A DNA stretch of 64,000 bases from Fimbriimonadia bacterium (GTDB lineage: Bacteria; Armatimonadota; Fimbriimonadia; Fimbriimonadales; JABRVX01): the NCBI GenBank assembly GCA_041483895.1, contig JBGPGO010000007.1, forward strand, positions 131,378 through 195,377, given 5' to 3'. The notes under the pieces are model-generated. The model was not told the origin of the DNA. It was given only the letters and a program-made list of their open reading frames with translations, and searched no databases. Position 1 is the stretch's first letter; each line of letters opens with the position of its first letter. Positions 28,964 through 63,511 of the stretch are shown here, one piece after another. Position numbers and translations under genes: made by a program.

Positions 28964-29740
28964 ATGAAAATGATACCGATTCTGTGCCTGTTCCTTGCTG
29001 CCGCCGCTACAGCCCAAGTTCACTGGGAGACTAGCTACGACCACGCCAAGCAGGTCGCCGATAAAGCCGGAAAGCCGCTCCTTGTTGACTTCGCGGCGTC
29101 CTGGTGCGGGCCATGCCGGATGATGGACGAGCAGACCTTTAGCAACGCGAGCGTGAAATCTCTTCTCGCACGAACCATCTGCCTTCGGCTCGATGTGGAT
29201 CAGCGCCCGCCGCTTGCCGCAAAGTTTGGCGTCAACTCCATCCCGCGCGTGGTCTTGCTGTCCACAACAGGCGTAACGATCATGGATATTCAGGGTTTTC
29301 ATGACGCACAGTCGTTTTCGCAGGAGCTCAGTCGTGCGCTGGGAGTGAAAGCCGATGCCGCCGCACCGACTGAATCCCCCGAGGCAGTTAAGGTGCGTGA
29401 GGCGCTGCGAAATGGCACGTTCAGGCGACTGAAAGCCAGCGATCCGAAAACCGCCGCGCGCGGATTGGATCTGCTCGTGGCACAGCTTGGGGTCTTTGAG
29501 GAAGCGCAATATCGTCCGATCGCGTCGCTGATCAAGAACGCGGGCAGGGATGCCATCCCCGCGCTCATCGCCGGGATGGGGCATAAGCATCTGGCGGTCC
29601 GCGTCGGCGCTTATCGGACGCTGCAGTCAATCCTTGGCGCCAAACGTGGCCTGCCGGTTTACAACCCGTGGGCGTCTGCCAAAGTTCGGCAGCAGCAGCT
29701 CGCCGCGTGGCAAAAATGGTGGCAGAATCAGAGCGGCTAA
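28964..29740 (+). CDS. Secreted thioredoxin-fold protein (WCGPC) with HEAT-like C-terminal repeats
   Basis: Signal peptide MKMIPILCLFLAAAATAQ. Canonical thioredoxin active site (LVDFAASWCGPCRMMD). C-terminus includes AIPALIAGMGHKHLAVRVGAYRTL. Confidence 0.8.
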   Translation: MKMIPILCLFLAAAATAQVHWETSYDHAKQVADKAGKPLLVDFAASWCGPCRMMDEQTFSNASVKSLLARTICLRLDVDQRPPLAAKFGVNSIPRVVLLSTTGVTIMDIQGFHDAQSFSQELSRALGVKADAAAPTESPEAVKVREALRNGTFRRLKASDPKTAARGLDLLVAQLGVFEEAQYRPIASLIKNAGRDAIPALIAGMGHKHLAVRVGAYRTLQSILGAKRGLPVYNPWASAKVRQQQLAAWQKWWQNQSG

Positions 29741-32193
29741 TCCGCATAGCCGCCATATCGTTGACCCTGCCGCATCATGATCTTTGCGATTGCCATATCC
29801 GCCGTGCCGAACTTGGACGGCTTTGACGATTCCAGTTTCCATCCACCCGACTGCCGGAACTTCGCGAGGTACTCCTTGGGCATCTGGCCGCGCATATCGT
29901 ATGGTGAGTAGTATGTTTGACTCCCCGCCATGGGCCGCCAGGACCAGTAATGCACCTCCGCCAAAGAGCGCGAATCGTTGAACAGGACAGGTCCGTCCTT
30001 TGTGAGTATCGTCATGCTGTCGTTCGCGGGGCCGCCGAACTGCAAAACGCGCATCCCGCCCAGATCGTCGACCCGCTTCATGTAGTCCTCTTCCGTTACG
30101 CAGATGACGCGCGCCGCCGCTCCGTGAAACTCCTGCCAAGACGGCTTGTCCAGCACGACGATGATCGGATCGCGGGCTTTGTCACCACCGAAGCAGGCGG
30201 TGAACACGGTTTGGAGAATCTCGCGTCGGTCGGCGTTCCCAGCGAGCGGTTTCCCCTCCGTCCCGTTCGGGGCAGGCGCCAGCGGGTTGGCGTCCTTTCC
30301 GTCCGGCGCTCCGTCTCCATCCGTGTCTTTCTTGCTTGGGTCCGAACCGAGGCGCTTCTCGATCCGGTCCGGCAGCCCGTCGCCGTCCGTATCTTGCCGC
30401 ATCTCTTTCAGCGATAGTGTGATTGGGGTCCGCAGTCCTTTGCTGACCGACTGCTGCAGCTTGCTGGACTTGCGGTACAGTTCCGACCGCCGTTCCGCCA
30501 CTAGGCCGGAATCCCGCAGCGCCGCCTGCACACGCTGCAATTCTAGCGCGTCGGTCTTGTTGGGCGGCGATAGGACTACGCTGTCTCCGTCCACCGAAAT
30601 CGTGCAGCTGCCCGCCTTGGGTCCACCGCCGTAGCTTGAATAGTTGGATCCCGCGACGTACTGTTTGCCGGAGAACAGAAACTCTTGCCATTTGCCTTCC
30701 CGTTCCCGCGCGAGCCAGAGGTCCATCGCGTTCCCCAATCTGGGACAGACGACAACCACCCATCGGTTGCCGTCGGGCGAGAGATTGGAAGCGACGGGTG
30801 ATAGCGTGCCGGTTGGAGCGTCTTTTTCGCCATGAAAAACCGGTAGTTCGAATTCGCCGAGCGCGATCGTGCCGTTGGAGTCTGATTTGAAGGCGGTCAG
30901 ATTCCCGGTGGCAACGAGACCTTGCCGGGCGGTGGCGCGGGCCTCATCCGACGCGTCCGGGCTGGTGGCGATCTCTCCCAGCGCTTCCATTCCGGCTTTC
31001 GTGCCCTTCCTCGCGATCGCGGCGGCGCATTTGGAAAGGAGAAGCGCGGCCATGCCCTTTTGCTTGGGATTCGTTGTGTGCATTGCGCGTTTGGCGAAGT
31101 TCGCGATGGCTGCGTCCGCCGTGGGAAGGTCCATGATTTCCAGTACCCGCAAGGCAGCGTCGGCAGCCGGCGGCTTCGCAACGTCGAGAAATCCGGCAAG
31201 TGTGGGAACGGCGGCGTCTCCGAAAAGGCCGAGCGTCGAGAAGGCGTCGTTCGTCTCTTCTCGCAACGGCGGAATCTCGGTGGGAGATTCTACTTCCGCA
31301 CCGGGTGATGCGCCGGAGCGGCCCGCGTAGGACGAAAACCCTTCCGCAGAAATCTCCGGGCTCCCATCGATCTTCGCCTTTAGGGCGGCGATCTTGTCGG
31401 ATATCTTCTTCGGATCGGTCAGCCGCGATAGCTTCCAGGTCCCACTCTTGTAGGCCGCCTCCCCGCCGAAATAGTCCGCGAGCCGCACCATCAGCTCCTC
31501 CAGCCCAATGCGGTCCACCACTTTGAACTGCAGCATCGCGCGGTGGGTCTGCTGGCTATAGGCGCCGGAATAGGACCGACGGGAGGCTTCTCCATACATC
31601 AATGAAAGCACGCCGCCGCCTTCCTCCTCCGGCTTGGTTTCGCGGCCAAGGAGGTTTTGGCGAAGGGTCAGCAACTGTGGATCGGCATCAATTTTGATCT
31701 GCCAGGTTGAGCTCATGGCCGTCACCATCTGGCCGGCCGTCTCCGCGAAGATTCCAAATCCGGTGATCCCGTCCGGCGGCGACTTCTCTATCGCATGCAG
31801 CTCTTTTTCCGGGCCGAAGTACAGGAGAACATATTCCTTCCCCTGTTTCCAGGCAATCGGGGATTTCTTTGCGCACGTCTCTAGAACCTGCTGGACGGAC
31901 TGCGCTTGGGGCGTGTAGGCCGGCGTCCATTTAACTTCGTCGAGCGGCTTGGGCGCGAACACGACCCAGCAGCCGCCGGCCGATTGGGCCATCGCAGCCG
32001 CCAGAGACAGCGGCTCGCCCGTCCGGCCCGTGCCGACCCAGGACGAAATGTCGAACGGCCGGGACAGATCGGCGTCGTGCGAAACATTCTCTGCTGATGC
32101 ATTTGTGCCCGGCTTTGCCGCATGGCGGCAGGACGGCAACGCTAGCAGCAATACTATGATCGCAACCCAAAACTGGAATCGACTTCGCGACAT
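29737..32193 (-). CDS. Large secreted/lipoprotein with HEAT-like repeats and thrombospondin type-3-like Ca-binding repeats; function unknown
   Basis: Signal/lipobox-like MSRSRFQFWVAIIVLLLALPSC. DTDGDGLPDRIEKRLGSDPSKKDTDGDGAPDGKDANP is TSP3-like. Helical repeat region. RBS GAAGGAG upstream. 4-nt tail-to-tail overlap with the thioredoxin gene. Confidence 0.65.
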   Translation of the reverse strand: MSRSRFQFWVAIIVLLLALPSCRHAAKPGTNASAENVSHDADLSRPFDISSWVGTGRTGEPLSLAAAMAQSAGGCWVVFAPKPLDEVKWTPAYTPQAQSVQQVLETCAKKSPIAWKQGKEYVLLYFGPEKELHAIEKSPPDGITGFGIFAETAGQMVTAMSSTWQIKIDADPQLLTLRQNLLGRETKPEEEGGGVLSLMYGEASRRSYSGAYSQQTHRAMLQFKVVDRIGLEELMVRLADYFGGEAAYKSGTWKLSRLTDPKKISDKIAALKAKIDGSPEISAEGFSSYAGRSGASPGAEVESPTEIPPLREETNDAFSTLGLFGDAAVPTLAGFLDVAKPPAADAALRVLEIMDLPTADAAIANFAKRAMHTTNPKQKGMAALLLSKCAAAIARKGTKAGMEALGEIATSPDASDEARATARQGLVATGNLTAFKSDSNGTIALGEFELPVFHGEKDAPTGTLSPVASNLSPDGNRWVVVVCPRLGNAMDLWLAREREGKWQEFLFSGKQYVAGSNYSSYGGGPKAGSCTISVDGDSVVLSPPNKTDALELQRVQAALRDSGLVAERRSELYRKSSKLQQSVSKGLRTPITLSLKEMRQDTDGDGLPDRIEKRLGSDPSKKDTDGDGAPDGKDANPLAPAPNGTEGKPLAGNADRREILQTVFTACFGGDKARDPIIVVLDKPSWQEFHGAAARVICVTEEDYMKRVDDLGGMRVLQFGGPANDSMTILTKDGPVLFNDSRSLAEVHYWSWRPMAGSQTYYSPYDMRGQMPKEYLAKFRQSGGWKLESSKPSKFGTADMAIAKIMMRQGQRYGGYAD

Positions 32194-32325
32194 TTCCCCA
32201 CTCCTTCACCCGCCAAGAACGTAAGCTATTCTACGCTAAATGAGCCGTCTCGCTGACAACAACTTGAAGCGTGTCTGCTTTCCTCGGCTTCTAACCATGT
32301 CGCCCGACGAAATTTCAATTGCCGG

Positions 32326-32354
32326 TTGACACGCCGGATTCTTGATGCTATAAT
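32326..32354 (+). promoter_or_regulatory. Consensus sigma70-type promoter (TTGACA-17 nt-TATAAT)
   Basis: TTGACA at 32326-32331, an exact 17-nt spacer, and TATAAT at 32349-32354, seen directly in the sequence. It drives the leu leader. Confidence 0.7.
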
Positions 32355-32364
32355 GCTTCCCAAT

Positions 32365-32487
32365 ATGTTCTCTGGCGGAATCACAAGGATCGCGTTCAAG
32401 GGCCTCGACCGCATTGCGGCGGTTGAGGGCGTTTCGCTTGCGCTTATTCTTGGGCTTCCATTGGTCCTTATTCTTGGGCCAACCTAA
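32365..32487 (+). CDS. Candidate leu-operon leader peptide (40 aa, 7 alternating Leu codons)
   Basis: The ATG lies 10 nt after the -10 hexamer. Translation is MFSGGITRIAFKGLDRIAAVEGVSLALILGLPLVLILGPT*. The seven Leu in the last 16 codons are CTT x6 and TTG x1, interspersed with 2 Ile and 1 Val. A terminator follows the ORF. Confidence 0.6.
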   Translation: MFSGGITRIAFKGLDRIAAVEGVSLALILGLPLVLILGPT

Positions 32488-32519
32488 CGCCGGGAACAGC
32501 GCACAAATTTCACAACTTT

Positions 32520-32555
32520 AGGCCTCCCGGAAAACCGGGGGGCCTTTCCGATTTT
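32520..32555 (+). terminator. Rho-independent terminator/attenuator upstream of leuB
   Basis: GGCCTCCCGG-aaaa-CCGGGGGGCC forms a 10-bp stem with one G-U pair, followed by TTTCCGATTTT. It lies 33 nt after the leader stop and 205 nt before the leuB ATG. Confidence 0.7.
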
Positions 32556-32760
32556 GAGCGGCAAACGCGCCGACAGTGTCGTCGGCCTGACATCCCGCCT
32601 GCCCCGCCCGTCCCGAGCGAAGCCGAGGGAAGCGGAGCCGAGGGGATACCGGGAAACGAAAGGACGCGACATGGATAGGACTGGCGCAAGAGTGGTGATG
32701 GAGGCGACGCAATGGGCCGGCGAGCGCTGGGGCGGTCACCCATTCCGGGAGGCGCGGCGC

Positions 32761-33882
32761 ATGACCCACACGATAGCGGTTCTGCCCGGCGACGGTATCG
32801 GCCCGGAGGTGGTCGCCCAGGCCGTCTTGGCGCTCAAGGCGGTGGGCGTCCGATTTGGATTGGAGCTGCGATTTGACGAAGGGCTCGTCGGCGGGGCAGC
32901 CTTCGATGCGACGGGCCATCCTCTGCCGGACGCAACGTTGGAGCTTTGCCGCCGATCGGACGCTGTCATTCTTGGGGCGGTGGGCGGCACGAAATGGGAT
33001 GGACTCGATATGGAGCTGCGACCGGAAACTGGGGCGCTGCTACCCTTGCGCAAACAACTTGGGCTGTTCGCCAACCTGCGGCCCGCGCGGCTGTACGAAC
33101 CGTTGGCATCGGCTTCGCCGCTCAAGGCGGGCCATCGGTTCGATATCCTGATCGTTCGGGAGTTGACCGGCGGAATCTATTTTGGGAAAAAGGAACGGAC
33201 GGCCGGCGGCGCGATCGACGTCTGTTCCTATTCGGTGGAAGAGATCGAGCGAATCGTCCACGTTGGTTTTCGGGCGGCCCGAACGCGCGGACGAAAACTG
33301 TGTTCTGTGGACAAGGCCAACGTTTTGGAAACGTCGCGTCTCTGGCGAGAGGTCGTCGTTCGCATTTCGGCCGAGTATCCGGATGTCTCGGTGACCCACA
33401 TGCTGGTCGATAACTGCGCTATGCAACTGGTGCGCGATCCGAGCCAGTTCGATGTGATCGTCACGGACAATCTTTTTGGCGACATTTTGAGCGATGAGGC
33501 GGCAGCGATGACCGGCAGCTTAGGGATGCTTCCATCGGCCTCTCTCGGCGATGGAAGATTCGGCTTGTACGAACCGGTGCATGGATCGGCACCTGATATC
33601 GCCGGGAAGGACGTCGCCAATCCTATGGCCGCAATCCTTTGCACGGGGATGCTGCTGCGTCATTCTCTCGAATCTCCCGAAGCGGCGGATGCTGTCGATA
33701 AGGCTGTGATCGCGGCGTTGCATGACGGTTGGCGAACGGCAGACATTGCCGGCGACGGTAAGTTCATCGGTACAAAGGAGATGGGTGCAAGGGTCTTGGA
33801 AAAACTGGAATCGCGCTTCCCAATCCCTTCACAGTCGGACTGCGAAGGGATTGGGAAGTCGCACTGTAAAAGCGAGGACTGA
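32761..33882 (+). CDS. leuB: 3-isopropylmalate dehydrogenase, with ~20-aa C-terminal extension encoded by a palindromic element
   Basis: ATG 32761 follows [24 protein letters not shown]...[11 protein letters not shown]...GSAPDIAGK are IPMDH signatures. The 69 upstream codons of ORF 32554 cover the leader/terminator region. Confidence 0.9.
33826..33868. repeat. REP-like palindromic element, family A (21-bp arms, 1 mismatch)
   Basis: CTTCCCAATCCCTTCACAGTC-g-GACTGCGAAGGGATTGGGAAG lies within the last codons of leuB. Related copies are at 47828-47854 and 47946-47996. Confidence 0.85.
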
Positions 33883-33883
33883 T

Positions 33884-35422
33884 ATGGCAACACGCATTAC
33901 TATTTTTGATACCACACTGCGGGACGGGGAGCAGTCCCCTGGCGCCTCGCTCAACGTCGAGGAGAAGATCGAGATCGCGCGGCAACTCGAGCGGCTTGGC
34001 GTGGATGTCATCGAGGCCGGATTCCCGATCTCTTCGCCGGGAGATTTTCGCGCGGTGCAAGAGGTGTGCGCGGTGGTGAAAGAGGCGACGGTCTGCGGTC
34101 TGACTCGCGCCGTCGAAAAGGATATCGACGTCGCGGCGGAGGCTCTAAAAGGGGCGGTCCGTCCGCGAATCCATACGGGTCTCGGCGTTTCCGACAACCA
34201 CCTCCGCTACAAACTGCGAATGACCCGCGACGAGGCATTGGAGCACGGGATAAACGCGGTCCGCCATGCGCGGCGATACGTGGACGATGTGGAGTATTTC
34301 CTGGAAGATTCCGGCCGTGCGGATACGGACTATCTGTGCCGAGTCATCGAGGCCGTCATCGATGCCGGTGCGACCGTGATTAACATTCCTGACACCACCG
34401 GATTTACGACTCCCGACGAGTTCGGCGCGCGGATCCGGACGGTGCTGGAGCGCGTCCCAAACGTGGACAAGGCCGTCATCTCCGTGCACTGTCACAACGA
34501 TCTTGGCATGGCGGTGGCCAACTCGCTGGCCGGCGTCATGAACGGGGCCCGGCAGGTCGAATGCACGGTCAACGGCATCGGAGAACGCGCGGGAAACACG
34601 AGCCTGGAAGAGGTCGTGATGGCGATGAAGGTCCGGAGCGATCTGTTTGCGATGGAGACCGGCATCGTGACGCAAGAGATCTATAAGACGAGTCGCCTGG
34701 TCTCGAATCTCACGGGCATTCTGGTCCAGCCGAACAAGGCAATTGTTGGTTCGAACGCATTTGCCCATTCTTCCGGGATTCATCAGGACGGAGTCTTGAA
34801 AGAGCGCACGACGTATGAGATCATCGACCCGCGGGATGTGGGCATTCCTGAGAGCAAGATTCTCTTGACAGCGAGATCGGGACGGCATGCATTGCGCAGC
34901 CGCCTTGCCGACCTGGGCCACCAACTGGGCGAAGCGGAGGTGGACAAAGTTTATCAGCGCTTCCTCGAAGTTGCCGACAAAAAGAAGATGATTTTCGACG
35001 AGGACTTGGAAGCGATCGTCGCGGATGAGACTTCCAGTGTGCGAGTCACGTACGAGTTGGCTCATGTACAGGTCTCATGCGGCAGCGACAGCATTCCGAC
35101 GGCAACCGTCGAGCTTCTCGGGCCCGATGGCGATCGATTCGTCGATTCCGATCATGGCGCCGGACCGGTTGACGCCATCTACCGATCGATCAACCGGATC
35201 ATCGGCGTGGAGAATGAACTGATCGAGTTCTCCATCCAAGCCGTAACCGAAGGAATTGATGCCTTGGCCGAGGTCACGATTCGGATACGCCGCGGCAACG
35301 ACATATACACCGGCCGCGCCTCTCATTCTGACATCTGCGTCGCGAGCGCGAGGGCGTATATGCAGGCCCTCAATAAGCTGCTTGATCGCGTGGGCGCACC
35401 GGCTTTGGAGCCCGCCGTATGA
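33884..35422 (+). CDS. leuA: 2-isopropylmalate synthase
   Basis: The ATG at 33884 lies 1 nt after the leuB stop. [19 protein letters not shown]...[16 protein letters not shown]... are LeuA signatures, and a C-terminal regulatory domain is present. Confidence 0.92.
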
Positions 35423-36849
35423 AACCGAAAACGATGTTCGACAAGATATGGGATTCGCACGCGATCCCGGCCGAAGGGCGTGGGCATCCGCTGCTGTACA
35501 TCGACCGTCATCTGGTTCACGAGGTCACGTCGCCGCAAGCGTTCGATGGGCTGCGACTCCATGGGCGAAAGGTCCGTAGGCCGGACCTGACCGTCGCCAC
35601 GATGGACCACAACGTCCCGACGACGGACCGCCGACTACCAATAGCGGATCCGATTGGACGCAAGCAGCTTGAGGCGCTCGCCGCCAACTGCGCGGAGCAT
35701 GGCATTGCGCTGTTCGATCTGCACAGCCCGCGACAGGGCATCGTGCATGTGATCGGTCCCGAGCTCGGACTGACGCTTCCCGGCATGACGATTGTGTGCG
35801 GCGACAGTCACACGTCGAATCATGGCGCATTTGGCGCGCTGTCTTTTGGCATCGGCACGTCGGAGGTCGAACATGTGCTCGCGACCCAATGTCTTCCCCA
35901 ATCGAAACCGAAGACGATGGAGATTTGTGTCGATGGATCGCTGCCGCGTGGAGTGACGGCAAAGGATCTGATTCTCGGAATCATCGGCCAAATCGGCACG
36001 GACGGAGCGGCGGGTCATGTGATCGAATACACGGGTTCGGCGATTCGAGACCTTTCCATGGAAGGGCGGATGACCGTATGCAACATGTCGATCGAGGCCG
36101 GAGCGCGGGCGGGGATGATAGCGCCGGACGAGGTTACGTTCGACTACATCGAGGGCCGTCCCCGAGCACCGAAAGGGCAGCATTGGAAGGAAGCGCTCGA
36201 ATCTTGGCGCGGACTGCCGTCTGATCCAGGCTCGACGTTCGATCGAACGGTGGAAATCGATGCGGCGGATCTCGCGCCGTACGTCACATGGGGGACGAAC
36301 CCGAGCCAGGTCGAGCCGGTAGACGGATGCGTGCCGTTTCCCGACAGCTTTGCGACCCCACAGTCCCGGGAAGAGGCGCGGCGGGCGCTGGAATATATGG
36401 ACCTGGTTCCCGGCACGCCCATGCAAGATATCCCCCTCGATCGCGTCTTCATCGGCTCGTGTACCAACGGCCGGATCGAGGACCTACGGGCGGCCGCAGG
36501 TGTCGTGGCGGGGCTACGCGTCGCCGAAGGGGTTGTGGCGCTCGTCGTTCCCGGATCGCAAGACGTCAAACGGCAGGCGGAATCGGAAGGCCTCGATCGG
36601 GTGTTCATGGATGCGGGATTCCAATGGCGCGACGCCGGCTGCTCCATGTGTCTCGGCATGAACCCAGATACTCTTTCACCAGGACAACGGTGCGCTTCGA
36701 CTTCAAATCGGAACTTCGAGGGTAGGCAAGGCAGGGGCGGACGCACGCATTTGGTGAGTCCGGCAATGGCGGCGGCGGCGGCGATTTCGGGCCGATTTGT
36801 TGACATTCGAAAATTTGATTTAGGGAGGCTACAGTATGCAGTCGTTTGA
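35419..36849 (+). CDS. leuC: 3-isopropylmalate dehydratase large subunit
   Basis: [11 protein letters not shown]...[17 protein letters not shown]...GDSHT...CTNGRIEDL...CSMCLGMN are aconitase-family LeuC motifs. ATGA overlap with leuA. Confidence 0.92.
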
Positions 36850-37480
36850 CAAAATAACCGGTGTGGTTGCGCCGCTGAATCGGCCAAACATCGACACCGA
36901 TCAGATCGTGCCGAAGCAGTTCTTGAAGCGGGTGGAACGCACCGGCTTCGGACGCTTTCTCTTTCACGATTGGCGCTATCATCCCGACGGTTCTCCGCAG
37001 TCGGAGTTCGTGCTGAATCAGCGGGAGTATGAGGGCGCCGCCATCCTTGCGGCTGGCAAGAATTTCGGCACCGGCTCATCGCGGGAGCACGCGGCTTGGG
37101 CGCTCATGGATTACGGCTTTCGCGCCATCCTCGCGCCGTCGTTCGCGGATATCTTCTATAACAACTGCCTGCAGAACGGCATTCTGCCCGTCGTTTTGGA
37201 CGAGGAAGCGATAGAGCGGATTCACCATAACGCACAATCCGTTTCCGGTTATCGTCTAACGGTGGACCTCAACGAGCAGCGCGTGAGCGACAACAATGGG
37301 TTTGCCGCCGAATTTGAGATAAATCCGTTTCATCGCCATTGCCTGCTGAACGGCCTTGATGAAATCGCTTTGACGCTGGAATATGAGGACGCGATAGCCG
37401 CCTTCGAGCGTGGCCGCGCCGAGTGGTTGAACTCATCGGAGCCGGACGTGCGGGAGCAGCTCCACGAGGTCTACAACTAG
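36836..37480 (+). CDS. leuD: 3-isopropylmalate dehydratase small subunit
   Basis: [14 protein letters not shown]...[17 protein letters not shown]...FADIFYNN are LeuD motifs. 14-nt overlap with leuC. Confidence 0.92.
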
Positions 37481-49857: not shown

Positions 49858-50940
49858 TTACTCGGCAGCAAGCATATCCATGAGGCGGTCGTTGATAAAG
49901 AGCACATCGCGGCCCATTTGACGGCGTCTGAGCACTCCGATATCTTCCAGTTGAGATAAATATCTGGCAGCGGTGTTTCGCGAGGCTATTCCCGCGCGTT
50001 CCAATGTCGTTGACCGAATATATGGCAATTGGAAAACGAGATCGATTAGCTCGCGACTGTATCGGCGTCCCAACTTTTCCATTGCCAGTTCGCAGGTCTC
50101 CTTTATCGCTGCTCGAATTTGCTCCAAACGTCTGCGTGTCCCGGTGGCGGTTTCGCGAATCGCTTCCAACAAATAGAGAATCCAGGGTTCCCACATTTCC
50201 AGTTCCGTCACGTCTCGCAGATGGCGATAATATGCCGCACGATTTTCTAAGATGTAGTGACTCAAGTACAGCACAGGTACTTCAAGCAGTTTGTTCTGAA
50301 GCATCGTGAGAATATTTATCACCCTGCCGACTCGACCATTTCCATCCGGAAATGGGTGGATGGCTTCGAATTGATAATGCGCCACCGCCATTTTGATCAA
50401 TGGATCCACACCGTCGTCAATTGCGAGATAATCACAGAGGTTCTGTAGAAGGCTACTTATCAGGTCCTTTCCAAAGGGAGGCGTATAAACGATATCGCCT
50501 GATACGCTAGCGGCAAGTCTTGTTCCGGGGCCCGCGCGAAGATCGAATACGGGAGACTTAATGATCTTGGCCAACTCGATAATTAAGGACGTATCGATTG
50601 CGGGCTGCTGGTGCAACGTGCGATAGCCATGCCAGACCGCCTGCTCGTATCTAAGGACTTCCTTTGCTTGAGGACTTTTGGCATCGGTGTTGTCTGCCAG
50701 GGGAACGTATAAAGCATCGTTTGTGGTTACGACGTTTTCTATCTCGGAAGATAGTTTCGCCTCTTGAATTACGGCGGCTCTCAATAGAATGGATTGATTC
50801 GGGATGGACTGACCGAGGGTGTTCAACTCCGCGAGCGCCAAACGAGCCGGCAGTAGTTCGAGAAGAATCTGTTTTGTTACCACGTCCTTCGTCGGAGGCA
50901 ATGGCGGTAAATCGTTGTATGGTTCTTCGCGATCGAACAT
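49858..50940 (-). CDS. Fic-family AMPylase-type protein with N-terminal inhibitory motif and C-terminal wHTH-like domain
   Basis: Fic motif HPFPDGNGRVGR. An upstream SSEIEN matches (S/T)xxxE(G/N). Start taken at ATG 50940 (MFDREEPYNDLPPLPP), with a TTG at 50988 as the alternative. Confidence 0.85.
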   Translation of the reverse strand: MFDREEPYNDLPPLPPTKDVVTKQILLELLPARLALAELNTLGQSIPNQSILLRAAVIQEAKLSSEIENVVTTNDALYVPLADNTDAKSPQAKEVLRYEQAVWHGYRTLHQQPAIDTSLIIELAKIIKSPVFDLRAGPGTRLAASVSGDIVYTPPFGKDLISSLLQNLCDYLAIDDGVDPLIKMAVAHYQFEAIHPFPDGNGRVGRVINILTMLQNKLLEVPVLYLSHYILENRAAYYRHLRDVTELEMWEPWILYLLEAIRETATGTRRRLEQIRAAIKETCELAMEKLGRRYSRELIDLVFQLPYIRSTTLERAGIASRNTAARYLSQLEDIGVLRRRQMGRDVLFINDRLMDMLAAE

Positions 50941-51114
50941 GCACACAAAATACCTGGTTTTTTCAATCAAAGGGCGGAATCCGCGCAAATCTTAGGCATA
51001 TGCAAGTCAATCTGCCCAGAAAATACCTTGTTTTTGGGCAGATCGGTCCGGACATGCCCAGAACTTGGGCATGTTTCCATGCTTATGCACAGCAAATACT
51101 GGGTTTTTGGGCAC

Positions 51115-63302: not shown

Positions 63303-63511
63303 GCGAAGGTAGAATCGGTTTATGGCCACCCTGCGGCGTTTGTGATTTGCCCTAGGTGTTCGGAGCCGACAACAATATCTAGGGGGCCGTTCTCGGGTCG
63401 TACAATGGAGCCTCACGGCTCTCGCGGCGGACCGGACGCCACCAATTTATGTTCGGGGTTCCTGAACATCGGCGGTACACGGCGGTTGCGGGGTGGTATT
63501 CTATTTATGTT

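Follow-up and report, generated by a model that had tools for sequence, protein, structure and literature searches.

A predicted leader-peptide transcription attenuator preceding the leuBACD operon of a Fimbriimonadia bacterium

The locus described herein raises the question of why a transcript that starts at a perfect consensus promoter should encounter a strong intrinsic terminator before it reaches the leucine operon leuBACD. It is located in a 64,000-nt stretch of the genome of a Fimbriimonadia bacterium (assembly GCA_041483895.1, contig JBGPGO010000007.1, positions 131,378 to 195,377 of the forward strand), which is referred to in its entirety as the window and is numbered from its first letter. 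The initial annotation of this DNA proposed leu/ilv-type attenuation of leuBACD, and this proposal withstood every computational test that we applied, including the examination of alternative helices, shuffling, and folding at successive ribosome positions. Based on computational evidence that is intrinsic to the locus only, we consider the leuBACD leader fairly likely to be a ribosome-mediated leader-peptide transcription attenuator that is tuned to the supply of charged tRNA-Leu.

The sigma-70-type promoter of the leader (32326..32354, forward strand, as are all leader and operon features below) comprises the -35 hexamer TTGACA at 32326-31, a 17-nt spacer, and the -10 hexamer TATAAT at 32349-54, with an extended -10 TG at 32346-47. 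The TTGACA-17-TATAAT arrangement that was initially annotated is present and scores 12/12, and a scan of the 64-kb window revealed no other match of at least 11/12 on either strand; the promoter is near-consensus and probably constitutive. Judging from promoter spacing, transcription would start near 32361-32363. The ATG that had been placed 10 nt after the -10 hexamer was located at 32365 and is not preceded by a Shine-Dalgarno sequence; it would be 2-4 nt from the RNA 5' end, such that translation would be leaderless or nearly so. The open reading frame (ORF) that begins at this ATG (32365..32487) has 40 codons followed by TAA (32485-87) and encodes MFSGGITRIAFKGLDRIAAVEGVSLALILGLPLVLILGPT. 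It is absent from gene calls, even on an identical contig (L161, described below). We infer that this ORF is translated, that ribosomes stall on it, and that the leader responds to leucine.

The ORF contains seven alternating Leu codons, L-x-L-x-L-x-L-x-L-x-L-x-L, at 32437..32475. CUU is used at codons 25, 27, 29, 31, 35, and 37 and UUG at codon 33, and the codons between them include AUU at 28 and 36 and GUC at 34; codon reading therefore reproduced the composition originally described for 32437-32475 (CTT six times, TTG once, ATT twice, and GTC). The 13-mer CTTATTCTTGGGC, which was reported to be duplicated 24 nt apart, occurs at both 32443-55 and 32467-79. When all six frames of the whole window were searched, stop-free stretches of 13 codons with at least seven Leu codons were found in six ORFs only, and we calculated from these six that approximately 0.009 would be expected in the three frames of the 195-nt leader. 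CUU represents 16.8% of the Leu codons in 49 long ORFs versus six of the seven in the run, a comparison that is limited by the 13-nt duplication, which makes the Leu codons in the run not fully independent.

The leader RNA may adopt alternative structures. For 32355-32560, the folding energy was -87.7 kcal/mol, compared with -65.6 +/- 4.3 kcal/mol for shuffled sequences (z = -5.1). Its intrinsic terminator (segments 3 and 4, 32520..32555) consists of a hairpin at 32520-32545, an 11-bp G+C-rich stem of -23.0 kcal/mol with the sequence AGGCCUCCCGG-AAAA-CCGGGGGGCCU, followed by UUUCCGAUUUU, which bears out the earlier description of a strong terminator with a U-tract. A strict stem-based scan for a hairpin plus T-tract identified two sites on both strands (128 kb), the leader terminator being the longer and stronger; between the 12/12 promoter and leuB, a transcript would therefore meet the strongest terminator that the strict scan detected in the window. 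Segment 2 (32490..32503) begins 3 nt past the stop codon and may pair with either segment 1 or the terminator 5' arm. The pairing of CCGGGA (32490-32495) with TCCCGG (32525-32530) as an antiterminator, which was anticipated in the initial annotation, exists in the form of helix 2:3 at -11.5 kcal/mol, in which CCGGGA 32490-95 pairs with UCCCGG 32525-30 and GC 32499-500 pairs with GC 32522-23.

In addition to the structures first described, we detected helix 1:2, in which segment 1 (32439..32453), the 5' strand of a putative anti-antiterminator that overlaps Leu codons 25-30, pairs with segment 2. The region at 32437-32503 folds to -27.6 kcal/mol, and the duplex of 32439-53 with 32490-503 amounts to -17.8 kcal/mol. 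Dinucleotide shuffles of the spacer at 32488-32519 reached the observed energies with p = 0.022 for 2:3, p = 0.037 for 1:2, and 0.0025 for both jointly. The helices of the E. coli trp leader, at about -11, -12, and -20 kcal/mol, are similar in size to those found here. The 10-bp hairpin noted inside the ORF was also recovered (32403..32428, codons 13-22, -17.8 kcal/mol), and it may conceivably act as an RNA polymerase pause hairpin. In the full-length fold of the untranslated RNA, the post-stop region is taken up by the Leu-codon region and the RNA 5' end, with segment 2 pairing with the 5' end rather than with segment 1, and the terminator is present. We discounted, as implausible on kinetic grounds, a long-range helix of -21 kcal/mol between 32385-32412 and the terminator 3' arm. 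The locus contains in silico the elements by which attenuators of the trp/his/leu/ilv class are recognized: a promoter and leader before the operon, a Leu-rich ORF, a terminator, an antiterminator, and an anti-antiterminator.

Whether helix 2:3 forms is predicted to depend on the position of the ribosome. We folded only the stretch of nascent RNA bounded by the leading edge of the ribosome and by the polymerase, taking the stage at which the terminator 5' arm has emerged. The probability of helix 2:3, P(2:3), was 0.97-0.98 when any one of the seven Leu codons 25-37 occupied the A site. It was 0.81 for codon 38 and dropped to about 0 for codons 39 and 40 and for the stop codon. With the A site at the isolated Leu-14, P(2:3) was 0 and helix 1:2 formed instead. 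Since P(2:3) falls beyond codon 38, the Leu run ends where stalls cease to free segment 2.

These features may be combined in the following model. The promoter would start an RNA with its 5' end almost at the AUG, and the 40-codon ORF would be translated in a leaderless manner. When Leu-tRNA is plentiful, the ribosome would reach the UAA at 32485-87 and cover segment 2 (32490-32503), the hairpin at 32520-32545 would form, and transcription would end at about 32550; the stop codon, located 3 nt 5' of segment 2, would place the terminating ribosome over this segment in a geometry such as that of the trp attenuator. When Leu-tRNA is scarce, the ribosome would stall within 32437-32475, with segment 1 being covered or behind it and segment 2 being free. 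Free segment 2 would pair with UCCCGG once the arm is made, which would block terminator nucleation and allow read-through into leuB; the antiterminator would occupy that half of the terminator arm which is nearest the loop and from which the hairpin would have to nucleate. Without translation, segment 1 or the RNA 5' end would sequester segment 2, and termination would be the default.

The operon under this putative control was correctly named in the initial annotation. Very strong NCBIfam equivalog matches identified leuB (32761-33882; TIGR00169, 8e-143), leuA (33884-35422; NF002086, 5e-235), leuC (35419-36849; NF004016, 4e-238), and leuD (36836-37480; NF002458, 6e-87), and leuBACD (32761..37480) was regarded as one operon because its genes abut or overlap. 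The upstream neighbor of the leader is a divergent gene on the reverse strand for a putative lipoprotein with a bacterial TSP3 repeat (29737-32193). LeuB would be 30 residues longer (32671-32760) if it started at the in-frame ATG at 32671, which has AAGGA in front of it; the JGI call on the identical contig L161 uses this ATG (400 aa), whereas the family alignment favors 32761.

Several points weigh against the attenuator. It presupposes that leaderless translation operates in this phylum. The ORF is long (40 codons), and the model assigns no role to its first 24 codons. The distance of 205 nt from the terminator to leuB exceeds that in textbook attenuators, and the T-tract after the terminator is interrupted and falls below the threshold of a standard terminator scan. 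Furthermore, equilibrium folding with a masked ribosome footprint keeps the terminator at every ribosome position, and the model is purely kinetic because the terminator always forms at equilibrium; the occupancy of 2:3 also decreases to 0.1-0.9 once long-range pairing across the ribosome is allowed. Folding in constrained states, which had been suggested as a check, thus yielded the expected 2:3 switch in the nascent RNA while the terminator persisted in the equilibrium fold. We rejected masked equilibrium folding as a test, attenuation being kinetic, and regard nascent-RNA folding as its informative version. In this organism, scanning for a consensus is a poor guide to promoters, and a second promoter in the spacer is possible. 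Regarding precedent, the predicted ilvB and leuA leader peptides of Streptomyces coelicolor were mutated and found not to behave as classical attenuators (PMC1262725).

The evolutionary record belongs to the same side of the balance. There is no evolutionary support for the leader, the sole close sequence being an identical copy. This sequence, the 3.4-kb contig L161 (JGI 3300052992), was the single 99% relative obtained in the protein search and is identical to the window over 3.4 kb except for a 9-nt (3-codon) indel in leuB at 33669-33677, which is deleted in L161; because it matches the window apart from this deletion, it provides no information on substitution or covariation. No Leu-run ORF with a terminator was found by eye and script upstream of leuB, leuC, or leuA at approximately 30 Armatimonadota loci. 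LeuA orthologs with 81-84% identity are placed in a different layout, ilvB-ilvN-x-ilvC-...-leuA; across relatives with 75-84% LeuA identity, leuA is retained in ilvBNC-leuA and the leader is absent, and one relative, the Chthonomonadales metagenome-assembled genome (MAG) locus L170, uses a T-box before ilvBNC-leuA. A lack of conservation in relatives had been named as grounds for refuting the proposal, and no relative carries the leader; however, we consider this test to be unfair because no other lineage has the leuBACD gene order and the one close sequence available does not differ from the leader.

The main rival of the attenuator, which we nevertheless regard as unlikely, is an independent small gene with a transcript of ~190 nt that encodes a hydrophobic membrane or toxin-like peptide or acts as a small RNA, with leuBACD being transcribed from an unrecognized promoter in the spacer. 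The unit is self-contained, with its own promoter and terminator, and its RNA is strongly structured with the 5' end paired to the post-stop region, similar to certain mRNAs of type I toxins. A long spacer precedes leuB, and promoters that must exist in this organism are missed by promoter scans. The C-terminal half of the peptide, SLALILGLPLVLILG, is hydrophobic; however, the hydrophobic stretch spans only ~15 residues and is interrupted by two Gly and one Pro. The peptide did not match Pfam or NCBIfam in either reading frame, and no antisense promoter-like site was detected; these, like the shortness of the hydrophobic stretch, are weak negative tests. The small gene also leaves unaccounted for the Leu/CUU bias beside a leucine operon, the stop codon 3 nt from the arm-pairing segment, and the position-dependent 2:3 switch.

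Somewhat less probable again is a conditional terminator that is operated by an RNA-binding protein, a tRNA, or a small-molecule riboswitch, with the ORF being incidental. The leader is highly structured, a related locus (L170) uses a T-box RNA sensor for its branched-chain amino-acid genes, and the leader is flanked by an inverted repeat of 18 nt (32274-91, 32619-36) as well as by tandem AGCCGAGGG motifs, all of which are in keeping with control that bypasses translation. On the other hand, it would have to be coincidental that there is a Leu run in this frame, that the RNA 5' end coincides with a start codon, and that the stop codon has its particular geometry. In addition, searches of the window, of 31500-33500 (E <= 10), and, permissively, of the narrow region 32340-32780 (E <= 10) revealed no T-box, Leu_leader (RF00512), or other Rfam cis-regulatory family in the leader; the T-box of L170 served as the positive control for the T-box scan.

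A functional ORF in the +1 frame, from TTG at 32438 to TAG at 32519-21 and encoding 27 residues, is very improbable. It has a Shine-Dalgarno-like sequence, GAGGG at 32425-29, 8 nt 5' of the TTG start, and its stop is at the foot of the terminator; however, the Shine-Dalgarno-like sequence is sequestered in the hairpin of -17.8 kcal/mol. Read-through would result in either case, since a finishing ribosome would cover the terminator 5' arm whereas segment 2 would be left free by a ribosome that stalls, and this candidate was rejected since a ribosome that blocks termination whether stalled or finished provides no regulation. The least credible account, a chance juxtaposition of elements without a regulatory function, agrees with the lack of conservation beyond the identical copy, but requires the jointly improbable occurrence of a unique 12/12 promoter, the top terminator, a Leu run, and alternative helices directly 5' of a leucine operon.

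If the leader is an attenuator, the next question is how it compares with known systems. The enterobacterial leuL leader (RF00512) similarly consists of a Leu-codon leader ORF followed by an intrinsic terminator and governs a leucine operon. E. coli leuL uses the minor Leu codons CUA and CUC, and minor Leu codons are also used in the run of the window leader. In contrast, leuL has four consecutive Leu codons and is led by a Shine-Dalgarno sequence, whereas the present run has seven alternating codons, and the RF00512 model does not match the window leader. Because of this lack of a match, the two leaders may be regarded as analogous rather than homologous, and the window leader is probably a new case in the known class of leader-peptide attenuators, an analog and not a homolog of the enterobacterial Leu_leader.

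Among the systems compared, the ilvBNC operon of Corynebacterium glutamicum shares the unusual start of translation. The leader peptide IlvL of this operon (Morbach et al. 2000, as described in PMC11857589) lacks a ribosome-binding site, with transcription starting 1 nt from the start codon, and the 292-nt leader contains three hairpins and gives rise to a terminated transcript of about 200 nt. The two leaders are alike in the absence of a ribosome-binding site, the presence of anti-antiterminator, antiterminator, and terminator hairpins, a short RNA of ~200 nt, and a long leader. They differ in that IlvL is only 15 codons long and mixes Ile, Val, and Leu codons, whereas the window ORF has 40 codons and a run dominated by Leu; the two sequences are not similar, the phylum is different, and the operon is leuBACD instead of ilvBNC. 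In Deinococcus deserti, 14 leader peptides of amino-acid and tRNA-synthetase genes have been predicted at or 1 nt from the RNA 5' end (PMC4007540); these are also predictions, from another phylum, and most are much shorter than the window ORF.

The initial annotation presented the alternating Leu run and leaderless translation as unusual. The run was observed and leaderless translation remains a prediction from the position of the start codon; precedents exist for both. Runs of regulatory codons are interrupted in the thr, pheA, and ilv leaders of E. coli. Neither a leaderless leader peptide nor an interrupted codon run is new.

A further question is where such a leader may have originated. 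When GTDB genomes and metagenomes were scanned on the basis of LeuB, conserved motifs saturated the output and the best matches showed 63-67% identity, and the leuB-A-C-D order was found at none of 160 loci. The best relatives of LeuB are from Armatimonadota with about 70% identity, and LeuA is 75-84% identical to many Chthonomonadales or Chthonomonas proteins and 100% identical to one NCBI protein; by these proteins, the organism resembles Chthonomonadales. The relatives at ~70% LeuB identity have leuC-leuD-(GNAT)-leuB-PII-HMGL-type clusters or a lone leuB, and no Rfam family was detected in the regions upstream. Screening all loci for Leu runs in six frames gave too much noise to be of use; an "LLLL" ORF in a gut Firmicutes locus (L097) was merely a terminator T-tract.

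Two gene arrangements in these relatives are recorded here as separate observations. A P-II (GlnB-like) gene is located between leuB and a second HMGL/LeuA_dimer-type synthase gene in Chthonomonadales relatives (L162:7166-7504; L165:2047-2385; L166:8728-9066; L168:11339-11677; L170:11048-11386); the second synthase is ~27-35% identical to the window LeuA, and the leuB-PII-synthase module is absent from the window operon. Fimbriimonadales relatives have a conserved small membrane-protein gene directly 5' of leuB (L022:2626-2960, L025:2690-2990, L027:2640-2940), with a product of roughly IQSTDWLARGGTY...NDGCLYGICNIILAFLGGGxGFLxLIHxYPYF, which is unrelated to the window leader ORF.

In L170 (GCA_049967475.1, JBMFSQ010000013.1), a bona fide T-box (RF00230; 719-985, 112 bits, E = 6e-26) precedes ilvB-ilvN-x-ilvC-leuA. 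The leader of L170 (670-997) contains a TTGACA-18-TATGCT promoter, the T-box, and a terminator, and the specifier is probably CUC (Leu). A T-box before ilvB is known from this one relative, which is the sole locus that covers the upstream region of ilvB. Similar to the Leu T-box of L170, the window leader is predicted to control leuA by conditional termination that answers to tRNA-Leu charging, and the CUC specifier and the CUU codons would be read by the same isoacceptor family. In the T-box, however, the tRNA is bound directly and no ORF is involved, whereas the window leader has no T-box motifs.

A comparable exchange has been reported for the ilv-leu operon of Staphylococcus aureus, in which a Leu-rich attenuator peptide is found where Bacillus subtilis has a Leu T-box (PMC5794164). 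The present case is similar in that a Leu-rich ORF with a terminator and an antiterminator stands where a relative, here L170, has a T-box. The S. aureus attenuator peptide is experimentally supported and conserved among staphylococci, whereas the window leader is a computational prediction. In the lineage of the window, leuA may have moved into a new leuBACD operon behind an ORF-based leader, and this lineage seems to have acquired its leader-peptide switch on its own. It is possible, albeit doubtful, that the attenuator is a recent, lineage-specific invention, namely, a replacement of a T-box by a leader peptide near its origin, perhaps with a second layer of control in the spacer; under this scenario, leuB, leuA, leuC, and leuD would have been brought together in a single compact operon, and the Leu run may have been lengthened by the 13-nt duplication.

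A literature search yielded no paper that pairs Armatimonadetes with "attenuator" or "T-box riboswitch". If the present interpretation is true, no leader-peptide attenuator would have been described before this one in Armatimonadota, and it would provide the second case, after Staphylococcus versus Bacillus, of close lineages that sense tRNA-Leu charging by a T-box in one and ribosome stalling in the other. The known mechanism of attenuation is unchanged and no long-standing question is opened; nevertheless, the pair of a T-box and a leader peptide would help to explain the origin of attenuators and their exchange.

The G+C- and purine-rich spacer of 205 nt from the terminator to the leuB start (32556..32760) was also analyzed. 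It folds no better than shuffled sequences (z = +2.3), and the Shine-Dalgarno sequence of leuB, GGGAGG, is at 32746-51. The consensus scan found no promoter match above 7/12 in the spacer; the same scan found no promoter for the divergent upstream gene, and because it also misses that promoter, the absence of a consensus promoter from the spacer is weak evidence. Tandem AGCG[A/G]AGCCGAGGG repeats are located at 32616-44 in the spacer. The promoter and leader are flanked by the 18-nt inverted repeat mentioned above, TCTGCTTTCCTCGGCTTC (32274-91) and GAAGCCGAGGGAAGCGGA (32619-36), which matches at 16/18 positions and is unique in the window; its right arm is within the tandem repeat AGCGAAGCCGAGGG / AGCGGAGCCGAGGG (32619-32644). 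The inverted repeat could represent operator sites or a motif that is common to the 5' UTRs (untranslated regions) of both divergent transcripts.

The terminator 5' arm, GCCTCCCGGAA (32522-32532), is also a perfect 11-nt complement of the leuB ribosome-binding region, TTCCGGGAGGC (32743-32753). This complementarity resembles the actinobacterial LEU element, in which the leader pairs with leuA's Shine-Dalgarno box (PMC1262725). A second layer of control may reside in the 205-nt spacer, for which the inverted repeat, the AGCCGAGGG motifs in tandem, and the complementarity of 11 nt are candidates.

Two other features were detected elsewhere in the window. The 28-nt motif TGCCCAGAAAATACCTTGTTTTTGGGCA, a TGCCCA-N16-TGGGCA palindrome, occurs three times exactly 73 nt apart at 50940-51113, in the divergent intergenic region 5' of a dCMP-deaminase-like gene (ATG 51155). 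The three copies are probably a regulator-binding array, and the second strict hairpin-plus-T-tract site of the window (51053-51073) is located among them. A 6S (SsrS) RNA gene was identified at 63325-63498, with a score of 46.9 bits versus the Rfam gathering threshold of 46.4.

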